Positions 30,409-46,324 of a DNA stretch of 64,000 bases are shown here, piece after piece (the first letter of the stretch is position 1; each line of letters begins with the position of its first letter). Origin of the DNA: Carpediemonas membranifera BICM (taxonomy: Eukaryota > Protista > Fornicata); NCBI GenBank assembly GCA_019828565.1, contig JAHDYR010000014.1, positions 1 through 64,000 on the forward strand, written 5' to 3'. The notes below the pieces were generated by a model that worked only from the letters and a program-made list of their open reading frames with translations, did not search any database and was not told the DNA's origin. The position numbers and the translations under genes were made by a program.

Positions 30409-30790
30409 TCTGAGATGTCTTATGCCCTAAAGTGCACGGCCATGTGGCTTTCATCAACAGGCCCGTCACATCAGCCATATCAGGGTGACTAGTAAGGCAA
30501 GCTAAGCAGATATTCAGCTGCATGAATGCCGCCACTTGCCCCGAATTGTTCTGATTTCATTTAGTGTGCACTTTAGGGGATAGTTTCATTGCAACGCCAA
30601 AATGGCGAGTTCAGGTTGTAGCAATGATCTGATGCGCGGAATGTACTAGAAAACATTGCAATTACAACGCAAAGCAGCGAAAAGCGGAGAAATCAACATC
30701 AATAACAACATCAACACCAAAAGAACAGTATCCCAAAGAGTTGTGGGCGTTGCTGCGCCAAAGAGCAATAAATGACCACAAAGCATTCGC

Positions 30791-31102
30791 TTATGCACAA
30801 TTAGCTGCCAGAAAGAACACTACACCGTTACTTTGGATCATTCCAGTTCGCCGGAGATGACGCAGGTCCAGAACGCTGCCTTGGAGGGCTGGTGAAGCGG
30901 TAGTGTAGCGCTTACTCGCCAAGCGGGCGATGGTCTCGACGGGACGGTTGACGGTCTCAAGGTGGCCCTGCTCTTCGACGTACCAGGCGGACATGCCGAT
31001 GACGGAGCGGCGCTGACCCTGGCGGACGTTATCTTCGCCCTGGGTGAAGCTGTTCTTGCCGCAGTACACGTCGATACCGATGGTGAGGCAGGGCTGTAGC
31101 AT
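30791..31102 (-). pseudogene. Probable Argonaute/PIWI-domain gene fragment, copy 1
   Basis: PCLTIGIDVYCG...RRSVIGMSA resembles the PIWI first-Asp strand ([IV]G[IA]DV[YT]H...SV.G.VA). Codon usage is C-ending and host-like. Confidence 0.55.
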
Positions 31103-31194
31103 GGAGGCCGAGAAACCATAAACTGCACGGATCCACAAACGTGGATTGGCCTGAACGACAGCGCTGATGCCCAGACAGGCATATATACATTCAT

Positions 31195-32202
31195 TTATTC
31201 CTGTCTCGCTCTCTTGCCTGTCGGATCGCGACGCTTGACCCACTCAAATGCCTCATCTGTGAGGTAGACAGAGACGTCGCGAGTATTCCCAATCTTAACC
31301 TTCCGAATCAACGTTCGGCAAGGATCTTTGGGTGTCGTCGTTGAGGTACGACGGCAAGCCCACTCTGAGGTCTCGCATGAGCCCCCGCACACGATGCAAC
31401 GTCCTGACAGGACAAGCGGGGGGTCATGCGTTCTGGCCATAGCTAGCTGGTCCACCTGGCTAGCAGTCAGTGTGCGCGACATGAGCGTACCGCGCGTCTT
31501 GCCCGTGTCTTCGGGCCTGGGCCTCGGCTCATCCAGGTCTCCGACGTCCGAAGTCGTCATCGTTGCCTGCTCCAAAGTGGTGGGCACCGGCTGAGACCTG
31601 ACACCTGGCAGCCTGAGCATGGTCTTACGGCCGCCGCTACGCAGCCTCTCAATCTCATCCTCAAGAATGCTGACCTTCTTCGTCAGAGCATGATGTTCAC
31701 TTGTCGCAACGAGCGACACTGGCGACTTAAGCAGCGCGATGAACGCCCTGACGTTATCGTGCAATGGAACCGAGAAGGCCTGGGCCAAGCTCTCGACCAG
31801 CTCCAGGACCTTGGGCAGGGTGTCGGGCTCAAGCTCATTGTGAGCTGCGCGGTTCCGGTACTCAACGAGATCACGAATGATCTTGGCATGGGCTTTGTTG
31901 TACGCCGCTCGATTGGACATCACACGAAGGATTCTTGATGAATCCACGTCCTGTTCGAGCTCTTTGCCGAGGAGGTCCTTCTCGGTGCTATTGGGCTTGC
32001 ACCCGGGGTTAAATTCAGGCGAGGCCAAGATCTTCCGCATCCAAGGGACCATCATGGCGAGCAGCTGAAGAACTCGCGCATTATCGCCAAGGATGCGGAG
32101 CTGCTCATCGTTCCATGGTGAAATGAACAGGTGATGATCTTGTCGAGCGGATGATTGCCCTTTGAGAGGTGCTTGGCGATGCTTAGCGCGATATCGGTTC
32201 AT
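31195..32202 (-). CDS. HEPN (Swt1-like) motif protein with coiled coil and C-terminal Cys cluster, 335 aa
   Basis: Helical domain with QDVDSSRILRVM and LVEYRNRAAHNE (RxxxxH); C-terminal RCIVCG..C..C..C. Confidence 0.65.
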   Translation of the reverse strand: MNRYRAKHRQAPLKGQSSARQDHHLFISPWNDEQLRILGDNARVLQLLAMMVPWMRKILASPEFNPGCKPNSTEKDLLGKELEQDVDSSRILRVMSNRAAYNKAHAKIIRDLVEYRNRAAHNELEPDTLPKVLELVESLAQAFSVPLHDNVRAFIALLKSPVSLVATSEHHALTKKVSILEDEIERLRSGGRKTMLRLPGVRSQPVPTTLEQATMTTSDVGDLDEPRPRPEDTGKTRGTLMSRTLTASQVDQLAMARTHDPPLVLSGRCIVCGGSCETSEWACRRTSTTTPKDPCRTLIRKVKIGNTRDVSVYLTDEAFEWVKRRDPTGKRARQE

Positions 32203-32578
32203 CCACAGTTGTGGATGACGAGCAATTTAAGGTAGAAGCCCCATCAGTCAATAACCCCGTCCTATCGTGCAATAGAACACAGTTAACACTTATTTCCATG
32301 CGCAGCAACACAGCATGTGGCGGAGAGGCGCCCGGTATGGACGACACCAGGTGATCCACAAACGTGGATTGGCCAATTACGTCTGCTTTCCTCAGTAAAA
32401 GTACACTCCAATCCCAAACTGGGTACGTACGTTATCACGCAAGCCCCACAGACCCTTGGGTGTCCCGGGGATGTGGGCGTGTGATCCAGAGGTATTGTCT
32501 AATCTTCGACTATTGGGTCTGGGGACCGGAGCCTGGAGAGACCGTCACAGCAGGATAATATGACGCAGGCGGGTCAGC

Positions 32579-43853: not shown

Positions 43854-44229
43854 CCACAGTTGTGGATGACGAGCAATTTAAGGTAGAAGCCCCATCAGTC
43901 AATAACCCCGTCCTATCGTGCAATAGAACACAGTTAACACTTATTTCCATGCGCAGCAACACAGCATGTGGCGGAGAGGCGCCCGGTATGGACGACACCA
44001 GGTGATCCACAAACGTGGATTGGCCAATTACGTCTGCTTTCCTCAGTAAAAGTACACTCCAATCCCAAACTGGGTACGTACGTTATCACGCAAGCCCCAC
44101 AGACCCTTGGGTGTCCCGGGGATGTGGGCGTGTGATCCAGAGGTATTGTCTAATCTTCGACTATTGGGTCTGGGGACCGGAGCCTGGAGAGACCGTCACA
44201 GCAGGATAATATGACGCAGGCGGGTCAGC

Positions 44230-45474
44230 GTGCCGTTCTCAACGGTTGTGCAAAGAAATATGCTCACCATTTCGTTCGTGCATTTTATGCAAGCAATGGG
44301 ATCAACAGAACTTCACATCCAGCAGCTTATCGCTGCTGTTGAGGTATGTCGTGGACCGAATATATCGGATAGAGGTGAGAGACAGGCCAGGAAGCTATCT
44401 CGTGTCATCTCTGGTGAGTTTGACAATGCTTTCGTTAGATACTTGCGGGAACTGTACAAGGATGATGAATATGTCCTTCAGGAACTCGATGCCATCGAAG
44501 GTATCATTTACCAGTCCAATATCCCTCAATCTCCTCTTGTCGCTGAACTGCAGGCCGATCCAGACTCGAAGCCGACAGCAAGGCAGCGTAGGGCCGCACA
44601 CAGGGCCCAAATCAAGTCAACTCCGCCGGTTGTGAAGACACGGTTGAAGGCCGCCAAGGAGAGGAGACTGCTCAGCGACCCCAAGCCGACGAACCTCACG
44701 TCGACCGAGGCAACTGGCCTGACCAAATGGGTCGAGAGTCTCGAAACGCACGGAGATGACACTCTCGTGGCGAGCGATTTCGCAGGGATCAACGGTTTCG
44801 GTGCCAGCCGTGCACAGCTCGAGGGGCTCGAGATCTCGTTCGGGAGCGGGAACGTCCGGGTCATGCGAAGCTGGATCGCTTATCAGCTTTGCCTTTATGA
44901 CTGGATAAGTAAGGTTGTCGAGTTTGGGCGAGACGAAGTCCCAGTCGATGCGTTGCGCACGGCAGCAATCCATCAACGCCAGTTGTTCACCGATGCGAAC
45001 AAGGTTGATGCCAATGCCACCCGCATTCAGATTGTTAAGACTCCATTCTATAACGCAGTGATGCAGCGGGTAATTGGCATGGGTGAATCGGAGTCAATGA
45101 TGAGACACTACCACAACATTATCGGAGTGATCCTACTTCACTACGAGGATTTCCCCATCCTGATACAGCGCCAGCTGATCCCAAGCGACACTGATGCAGT
45201 TAAGGGCTTAAGTTCGCTCATTATCCACTGTCATCTGTGCACGACCTATAATCTCGTCAAGGACATTCGCCCGGAGATTGAGAGTGCCTTGGATGGCAAG
45301 GTGCCACGCGCAGTGATGCCCTTTGCCAGGAAGGCGTTTGGCCTCACCGCAAACTACCACGTGGAACAGCTCTCAGATGAGCCGATTACACCGGAGGTCG
45401 AGCCCGCAAAGAAAGGAAAAAAAGCAGAAGTACTCCCTCAATGTCCGTGCTGTTGCCAAGACAAGCGGGTGTGA
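44230..45474 (+). CDS. Hypothetical protein, about 400 aa (true start probably a downstream ATG)
   Basis: Long open frame with no recognised motif; ends in CPCCC. Confidence 0.65.
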   Translation: MPFSTVVQRNMLTISFVHFMQAMGSTELHIQQLIAAVEVCRGPNISDRGERQARKLSRVISGEFDNAFVRYLRELYKDDEYVLQELDAIEGIIYQSNIPQSPLVAELQADPDSKPTARQRRAAHRAQIKSTPPVVKTRLKAAKERRLLSDPKPTNLTSTEATGLTKWVESLETHGDDTLVASDFAGINGFGASRAQLEGLEISFGSGNVRVMRSWIAYQLCLYDWISKVVEFGRDEVPVDALRTAAIHQRQLFTDANKVDANATRIQIVKTPFYNAVMQRVIGMGESESMMRHYHNIIGVILLHYEDFPILIQRQLIPSDTDAVKGLSSLIIHCHLCTTYNLVKDIRPEIESALDGKVPRAVMPFARKAFGLTANYHVEQLSDEPITPEVEPAKKGKKAEVLPQCPCCCQDKRV

Positions 45475-45874
45475 CCCCTCGGAGATTGAGGAGGCCAAAA
45501 GGGCGAGAACGAAGTAAAAGTTTGATTGACACGAAAATGCACGTATCCCGAACCACGAAGATGTAGTATGGTGACCTTTTAACGCACAGAGTAGACTGAA
45601 ACTTCCCACTTGGCGCAGCTGACCACAAATTGTTCTGATTTCATTTAGTGTGCACTTTAGGGGATAGTTTCATTGCAACGCCAAAATGGCGAGTTCAGGT
45701 TGTAGCAATGATCTGATGCGCGGAATGTACTAGAAAACATTGCAATTACAACGCAAAGCAGCGAAAAGCGGAGAAATCAACATCAATAACAACATCAACA
45801 CCAAAAGAACAGTATCCCAAAGAATTGTGGGAGTTGCTGCGCCAAAGAGCAATAAATGACCACAAAGCATTCGC

Positions 45875-46186
45875 TTATGCACAATTAGCTGCCAGAAAGA
45901 ACACTACACCGTTACTTTGGATCATTCCAGTTCGCCGGAGATGACGCAGGTCCAGAACGCTGCCTTGGAGGGCTGGTGAAGCGGTAGTGTAGCGCTTACT
46001 CGCCAAGCGGGCGATGGTCTCGACGGGACGGTTGACGGTCTCAAGGTGGCCCTGCTCTTCGACGTACCAGGCGGACATGCCGATGACGGAGCGGCGCTGA
46101 CCCTGGCGGACGTTATATTCGCCCTGGGTGAAGCTGTTCTTGCCGCAGTACACGTCGATACCGATGGTGAGGCAGGGCTGTAGCAT
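45875..46186 (-). pseudogene. Probable PIWI fragment, copy 5 (cassette 45608-46309; one D-to-Y change)
   Basis: Same as copy 1 except GED to GEY. Confidence 0.55.
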
Positions 46187-46324
46187 GGAGGCCGAGAAAC
46201 CATAAACTGCACGGATCCACAAACGTGGATTGGCCTGAACGACAGCGCTGATGCCCAGACAGGCATATATACATTCATTTATTCCTGTCTCGCTCTCTTG
46301 CCTGTCGGAGACCAGCGGATTTAC

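Follow-up and report, generated by a model that had tools for sequence, protein, structure and literature searches.

A host Piwi gene fragment amplified within a DNA transposon of Carpediemonas membranifera: a possible RNA counter-defence

The first 64,000 nucleotides of contig JAHDYR010000014.1 of Carpediemonas membranifera BICM (assembly GCA_019828565.1; this whole stretch is called here the window, and positions are counted from its first letter on the forward strand) contain a DNA transposon of 21,217 bp (26594..47810) that has captured a fragment of a host Argonaute/PIWI gene. The captured piece is 186 nt long and sits on the minus strand of a 682-bp cassette, which is repeated five times inside the element. 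Considering the likely role of the captured gene in silencing and how the piece compares with similar captures in flies, we lean towards a role in which the piece would yield antisense or small RNA against the host Piwi gene, weakening silencing.

Identity of the Captured Piece and Its Host Donor

A search with a query of 72 amino acids (aa) gave two proteins among 44 candidates, both from C. membranifera: a hypothetical protein of 135 aa and an 823-aa "Piwi domain" protein (KAG9396300.1), called P0002 here. The piece corresponds to residues 562-623 of P0002, with 56 of 62 aa identical. The comparison at the nucleotide level was carried out with public contigs from two coded runs, whose contigs are near-identical, so that they apparently form one data set, which is probably not whole-genome DNA. 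A contig of 2,423 nt matched positions 42575-42760 with 167 of 186 nt identical (89.8%; 19 differences, no gap), and translation of its loose ends gives P0002 residues 552-561 and 624-633. Because this contig leaves the match into P0002 on both sides, the captured stretch is exactly 186 nt. A preliminary description of the window had proposed a captured Argonaute/PIWI fragment and expected high identity to a host gene; the match to P0002 in protein and contig bears out the capture, whereas the identity is 90% and not near 100%. An arrangement with two short introns around the piece was also considered and was dropped, given that the host contig aligns gap-free and that the contig of the cassette arm described below is unspliced.

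Detection of the fragment by PIWI profiles, also anticipated, failed. Pfam returned no family for it and phmmer against PDB no match, and a profile made from 23 Piwi/Ago proteins from outside Carpediemonas did not match it at E ≤ 10. Since the generic PIWI profiles were blank, the identification rests on the match to the host gene, and the blanks reflect the divergence of the host Piwi. When both host Piwi proteins were searched against the window by tblastn, no further Piwi piece appeared.

The donor P0002 itself is recognized by Pfam (Piwi, E 7e-38; ArgoN, E 6.5e-5). Its paralog P0014 (KAG9390027.1) shares 48% identity with it in the C-terminal region; after this paralog, the closest relatives are PIWI-clade proteins of animals. 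A 2,404-nt contig with P0014-coding loose ends matched 31 nt of the piece, 30 of them identical. Among metagenome contigs there were no loci related to P0002 or P0014, and no P0002 ortholog was found. By alignment, D574, E625, and the second D of the catalytic tetrad are present in P0002, and the last site is occupied by S (H in P0014). The captured fragment covers only residues 562-623 of the 823, with D574 as its sole tetrad residue, and a complete PIWI domain is absent from it. The Piwi-type pathway of Carpediemonas is uncharacterised; it has two paralogs, neither of them with a Pfam match to PAZ and one with an altered catalytic site.

Five Cassettes, Their Spread, and the Route of Capture

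As the preliminary description had it, the cassettes start at 30544, 33007, 35470, 42196, and 45628, and the minus strand of each encodes the peptide reported there. The window self-comparison showed 682 bp common to all five, with 0-3 pairwise differences. The shared block of some 650 bp described as an Argonaute cassette is real, although Argonaute accounts for only 186 of its 682 bp. Copy 1 occupies 30544..31225, with the Piwi piece at 30923..31108 on the minus strand; copies 2 (33007..33688), 3 (35470..36151), 4 (42196..42877), and 5 (45628..46309) carry it on the same strand at 33386-33571, 35849-36034, 42575-42760, and 46007-46192, respectively. Copy 4 is the one compared with the public contigs, and copy 5 has one private substitution. 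Copies 1-3 belong to one tandem array, whose 2463-bp unit consists of the cassette, a HEPN-like open reading frame (ORF), and the 5′ part of a 392-aa ORF. The ORF of the fragment (30791..31102 in copy 1, minus strand, 103 aa) joins 60 Piwi-derived residues to an unrelated tail of 43 residues in an identical arrangement in all copies. A 26-residue tail read in an alternative frame matched no protein, and no Rfam family was found in the window.

It had been observed that the codons of the piece end in C like those of the host gene at 63510, whose 5′ part is present and which we take to be a class II aldolase, and this held: 41 of 48 codons able to end in C do so in the piece and 105 of 128 in the aldolase. 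The same count was 893 of 2253 in seven pooled ORFs of the element and 12 of 38 in the tail of the fragment ORF, and the contrast between the piece and the element ORFs was strong (Fisher p 1e-10).

The placement of the cassettes between genes pointing at each other, reported for four copies, is confirmed in copies 2-5, while copy 1 has the transposase gene (minus strand) at its left. Two of the array copies share their left joint and were counted once, which leaves about 4 independent contexts, 3 of 4 being convergent (p about 0.05). With regard to the names given to the flanking genes, the kinase is firm, and HEPN, SET, and OTU fall below the cutoff and serve as leads only.

Outside the five copies, the fragment ORF is present on at least 6 contigs: for its cluster of 7 sequences, the longest contigs have 5 different lengths, and the contig with the window proteins has a sixth. 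The neighbourhood at these other loci was deduced from locus tags. Some fragment genes lie near a transposase identical to that of the window (J8273_7056 and 7060) and others directly beside a second transposase family, 36% identical to the first (4483/4482 and 7185/7186). Because the fragment ORF adjoins two transposase families that are only 36% alike, the module appears to have spread between element families, and more than the cassette alone may have moved.

The way in which the piece was acquired is suggested by a contig of 398 nt, which follows the left arm of the cassette (42295-42572, with 2 differences) and turns into other sequence 2 nt before the Piwi piece. The continuation of this contig and the host contig have the six letters CCTGGC in common across the joint, where the window has 2 of 6 letters changed; the chance of a shared run of 6 at the joint is about 0.002. 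Because CCTGGC is shared across the joint, we infer that the capture occurred by template switch at microhomology during gap repair, and the 398-nt contig would represent either the state preceding this event or a sister form carrying different cargo. A further contig, of 535 nt, starts at 42797-42831 beside a hairpin-like motif of the cassette and continues elsewhere; it may come from a sister element sharing the regulatory stretch.

This history is also what would be expected of neutral cargo, pasted once by gap repair and then multiplied inside a recombining module of promoter and terminator. DNA transposons often pick up host fragments. The near-identity of the five copies points to a single recent event and three of them lie in one array, the 398-nt contig shows the arm without the Piwi piece, and the piece has drifted by 10% from its donor. 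On the other hand, the limits of the piece are identical in all 5 copies and in all 7 cluster members, and its size, identity, and amplification are like those of the functional cases in flies. A second host piece was not seen in the 10.1 kb compared with contigs, which is a weak argument since the cover is incomplete. We regard the neutral origin as a serious but rather improbable account of the cassette.

The GTGCAnTTTA Motif and the Proposed Function

The piece is faced from both sides by the motif GTGCAnTTTA. In copy 1 one occurrence is antisense to the piece, 348 nt off (30566..30575, plus strand; also at 33029, 35492, 42218, and 45650), and the other is in the sense direction, 16 nt before the Piwi ATG (31119..31128, minus strand; also at 33591, 36054, 42780, and 46212). 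In the 14.9 kb of the element that are non-redundant, the core TGCAnTTTA was counted 7 times, with 0.5 expected and 0 of 300 shuffles coming up to 7, and it is absent from the remaining window; all 7 occurrences are outside the long ORFs, which cover 63% of the element. The complete 10-mer has 16 matches in the whole window, where 0.2 would be expected. In three genes of the element it precedes the ATG, by 19 nt in that of the transposase, by 28 nt in that of the kinase, and by 8 nt in the 392-aa gene. No motif was found before the HEPN-like, 398-aa, and OTU-like ORFs or the host genes, and the one before the SET-like ORF is mismatched. Its position makes the motif a candidate promoter, and at the two sites flanking the piece it would act as such. 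The A-rich leader that follows the antisense motif most resembles the leader at 38891 (score 38, with 24.5 ± 3.1 for shuffles and 1 of 500 higher).

Three observations concern the same signals. At 38300-38891 on the minus strand, a motif is followed by an A-rich leader but by no long ORF; this stretch is weakly similar to the antisense arm of the cassette and could represent another cassette, carrying different cargo. At 27345-27358 the motif is found in a near-palindromic setting, followed by a short plus-strand ORF of ~53 codons, as judged by eye. Beside the sense motif, a short hairpin-like motif (31131..31151) is present, which recurs in the stretch separating the HEPN-like gene from the 392-aa gene (32354, 34817, and 44005); it is absent from viral contigs.

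Taking into account this arrangement, the cassette would be transcribed antisense to the Piwi piece, or from both sides, off the GTGCAnTTTA motifs. Small RNAs from the cassette, or from the element as a whole, would then guide a host Argonaute to the P0002 mRNA, and P0002 would be repressed, perhaps together with P0014, to which the 31-nt match points. It is assumed here that the host Piwi proteins act in silencing and that lowered silencing favours the element. The complete form of this proposal, in which a Piwi piece between facing promoters, amplified fivefold and swapped between transposase families, serves as a trigger of RNA interference by giving double-stranded RNA against the host Argonaute mRNAs, is put forward only tentatively. 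The read-through from the convergent flanking genes that had been suggested as the source of such RNA is not needed and poorly supported: the placement statistic is marginal, the cassette has its own motif on both strands, and an AATAAA coincides with the end of the HEPN-like ORF, shortly before the piece.

Small RNAs from the piece could, alternatively, be a by-product of silencing of the element by the host, a feedback or camouflage in which no dedicated antisense promoter takes part. The host would then have to reduce silencing at such loci, or its Piwi levels would be tuned. Such an explanation can do without a special promoter, and for gene capture in plants it is discussed in the accessible part of PMC13534243, yet it does not account for a motif that faces the piece from either side, and we consider it very improbable.

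Divergence between the Piece and the Host Gene

The 19 differences between the piece and the host contig were classified as follows: 12 are listed directly, 3 more were deduced by aligning the proteins, and the remaining 4 were assumed to be synonymous, so that 7 are classed by inference. Of those listed, 8 of 12 are silent and 4 non-synonymous. The resulting proportion of synonymous difference (pS) was 0.23-0.28 and that of non-synonymous difference (pN) 0.05. That all the change took place in a neutral fragment was rejected (p at most 0.0013), and a neutral fragment with equal silent change in the host was marginal (p 0.02-0.065). Three amino-acid changes could be polarised with P0014 (P565, H577, and F614), and all of them arose in the piece. 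At the listed silent sites, C is found in the fragment and not in the host in 5 of 8 and the reverse in 1 (p 0.11), and the loss of C-ending codons in comparison with the host flanks gave a Fisher p of 0.22. The pattern suggests that the host gene may be escaping by drift at silent sites. In the listed part of the alignment, 59 of 92 21-mers of the piece have at most 2 mismatches with the host contig, 16 of 92 at most 1, and 0 of 92 none. Among the contig matches listed from both runs there was no version of the Piwi piece belonging to the element itself, which is no evidence of silence; equally, the lack of contig cover for the kinase, HEPN-like, and 392-aa ORFs and for 36152-42195 is no evidence of silence.

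A decoy had been mentioned beside the RNA role, and the 103-aa product with its 60 Piwi residues, which span from the first catalytic strand to just before the catalytic Glu, could titrate a Piwi partner or poison a complex. The piece opens 6 nt before an in-frame Met of the host, with the sense motif close upstream, the frame is open in all copies, pN is lower than pS, and gene models (hypothetical proteins) are annotated at the other loci. The low pN, though, is equally explained by constraint on the host gene. Moreover, no copy keeps the conserved H577, 2 of the 7 cluster members have lost the catalytic D574, one member has a different tail, and three strands taken out of an RNase H fold would be unlikely to fold. 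We judge the decoy to be a doubtful explanation.

Comparison with Known Captures

The closest precedent is found in drosophilid telomeric retrotransposons, for which the accessible text of PMC13534243 describes at least 9 captures, 7 of them of piwi or aub. The captured stretches are of 140-235 bp with a median identity of about 90%, occur in up to 8 copies per element, and have matching piRNAs. Small RNAs from the host gene are reported there for the cases of high identity and nearly none at 79-82% identity, and the same text acknowledges that the targeting lacks experimental verification. The element of Carpediemonas is like these Drosophila and Zaprionus captures by telomeric Jockey-clade elements in that a piece of a PIWI-clade gene lies in an active-looking transposable element (TE) and the host Piwi is duplicated. 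Its figures also fall together with theirs: 186 nt against 140-235 bp, 89.8% against about 90%, and 5 copies against up to 8. It is because the captured gene would be a silencing effector, and because length, identity, and amplification are within the ranges of the fly piwi/aub captures, that the RNA counter-defence is favoured.

There are also differences. The carrier is no telomeric Jockey-clade LINE, considering its terminal inverted repeats, its 2-bp duplication, and its transposase of predicted DDE type. Unlike what that text reports for flies, we are dealing with an inverted-repeat DNA transposon of a metamonad, with a kinase and SET-, OTU-, and HEPN-like cargo, and with a piece that has flanking motifs and an ORF and is known here from sequence alone. 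The Carpediemonas element would work like the fly piwi/aub captures without being a member of that group.

The preliminary description had drawn an analogy with the nxf2 fragment of TART-A, which is apt, the repeated piwi/aub capture being the closer case. In the accessible text of PMC7785250, TART-A carries a fragment of nxf2 that is proposed to cause repression via antisense piRNAs; the likeness is a fragment of a silencing-pathway gene in a TE, and the differences are the LINE carrier, the cofactor as target, and the piRNAs observed there. A cut-and-paste case is given in the corresponding part of PMC3459959, where miR820 of rice CACTA DNA transposons targets OsDRM2, a DNA methyltransferase gene. 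In rice a cut-and-paste transposon aims a microRNA at the silencing machinery of its host, and here one would aim small RNA at it through a 186-nt Argonaute coding piece, with all copies in one orientation.

A search of the literature, of which few subscription papers were covered, turned up neither a protist with a captured Argonaute piece nor a cut-and-paste transposon that carries one, and this element did not appear there either. The main text of the C. membranifera genome paper (PMC8516963), in its accessible part, does not contain "transpos", "RNAi", "Piwi", or "Dicer", and its supplements may describe repeats; in the accessible part of PMC11437800 Argonaute is mentioned for diplomonads only. 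If the proposed function is true, the strategy of the fly telomeric retrotransposons would have arisen independently in a different supergroup of eukaryotes and in a TE of a different class. Argonaute capture as a counter-defence is described from drosophilid telomeric LINEs; present also in a DNA transposon of a distant free-living protist, it would be a result to which the conflict of transposons with RNA silencing leads generally and by convergence.

Several points weigh against an RNA role of the piece. The S at the last catalytic site of P0002 makes the silencing role of this protein uncertain. The motif was selected post hoc from the same data, which leaves its promoter role as a candidate one, and the convergent placement is statistically marginal. 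Between the antisense motif and the piece, a plus-strand AATAAA at 30767 could end the transcript; AATAAA was found at the stop in 2 of 9 gene ends examined and may not be the poly(A) signal of the host. The left arm of the cassette could just as well be where a gene on the minus strand has its 3′ end. By now the targeting may be weak, with no perfect 21-mer in the listed part and only 16 of 92 with at most 1 mismatch, and the signals of host escape are not significant, the excess of silent change being marginal under the equal-rate model. Finally, there is a HEPN-like gene (7189) close to the second transposase family as well, so the spread of the module may have a different cause.

The Carrier Transposon

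The limits of the element are given by perfect inverted repeats of 56 nt, the left one at 26594..26649 (plus strand, starting with CATG and preceded by GG at 26592-26593) and the right one at 47755..47810 (minus strand, followed by GG at 47811-47812). In a search of the window for inverted repeats of at least 40 nt, only these termini were found. The insertion split the reverse transcriptase (RT) frame of a non-LTR retrotransposon that belongs to a head-to-tail tandem array; the interrupted ORF is recovered as 47746-48579 plus 25030-26604 when the flanks of the element are joined, and the self-comparison showed an intact paralog at 16247-19868. Because the insertion site has a single GG in 7 uninterrupted copies of the retrotransposon and GG flanks the element on both sides, the target duplication is of 2 bp. 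A 4-bp duplication of CATG had been considered before and was dropped in favour of GG after comparing the uninterrupted copies.

The transposase gene (27808..30408, minus strand) encodes 866 aa. Among 1.84 billion representative sequences it has 17 relatives, those with a name all from Carpediemonas, and WxD, D441, PPxMHxS, and an acidic EE motif are conserved across the family. No Pfam transposase family matched the protein or 15 relatives, PDB sequences searched with a profile yielded no match, and no related loci were found among metagenome contigs. An alignment-based structure model was obtained with pLDDT 60; the fold from the single sequence only reached 35 and was unusable. With the former, Foldseek gave RAG1 as the best match (E 3e-6), then Transib (2e-3), and also ProtoRAG. 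In VIA, the P element had the highest Z (15.0; rmsd 4.8, 283 aligned), followed by RAG1 (13.2; rmsd 5.5, 360 aligned), Transib (12.3), and the next at 7.2. The model points to a RAG1/Transib/P-element-like fold, and the protein is predicted to be the DDE transposase of a small undescribed family.

The likeness to Transib and RAG1 lies in the RAG1-like fold of the catalytic core, at the model confidence given above and with the P element scoring higher in VIA. Transib has a 5-bp target duplication and CAC termini, whereas the Carpediemonas element has a 2-bp duplication and CAT termini. With CMC (Chapaev-Mirage-CACTA) elements, as described in the accessible text of PMC6004678, it shares inverted repeats starting with CA and a 2-bp duplication as in some CACTA, and it differs in termini of the form CAT...ATG instead of 5′-CAC...GTG-3′ (PMC6004678). 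No CMC structure was among the fold matches of the transposase in Foldseek or VIA.

Other Genes of the Element and Surroundings

The HEPN-like ORF (31195..32202, minus strand, 335 aa) matched Pfam HEPN_Swt1 with E 0.007, below the cutoff, and has copies at 33658-34665 and, frameshifted, at 42960-43853. An acidic ORF at 36356..37783 (minus strand), which probably has introns, is OTU-like in its C-terminal part; this is a lead only, from an Atlas feature match of 0.90 to a cluster with 19% OTU members, and Pfam gave no match. On the plus strand there are a 398-aa ORF with no assigned function (39360..40556), the protein kinase (40721..42016, 431 aa; Pkinase E 7e-23), and the 392-aa ORF (44296..45474; 414 aa if read from an upstream GTG), also with no assigned function and no match in an Atlas search. 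Truncated 5′ copies of the last one start at 32645 and 35108. The SET-like ORF (46325..47029, minus strand, 234 aa) had a Pfam SET match of E 0.099, below the cutoff.

Between the HEPN-like and the 392-aa genes, 35-47 nt at 44082-44128 are matched by several short contigs with unrelated flanks; Rfam had no match at this place, and the fold of 44060-44200 is no more stable than that of shuffles (z −0.19).

Up to 59560, the remaining window (1-26593 and 47811-59560) is made of head-to-tail non-LTR retrotransposons (RVT_1) of ~4.2-4.6 kb with 93-nt tandem repeats. They belong to at least 2 subfamilies, ~65-85% alike, and resemble CRE-type site-specific elements. A DIRS-like element, in which the RT/RNase H and tyrosine-recombinase ORFs overlap, lies within this array at 13087-15909. 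Host genes are found at 60119-64000, where those of an NADH:flavin oxidoreductase and an RCC1-repeat protein are convergent with 31 nt between them.

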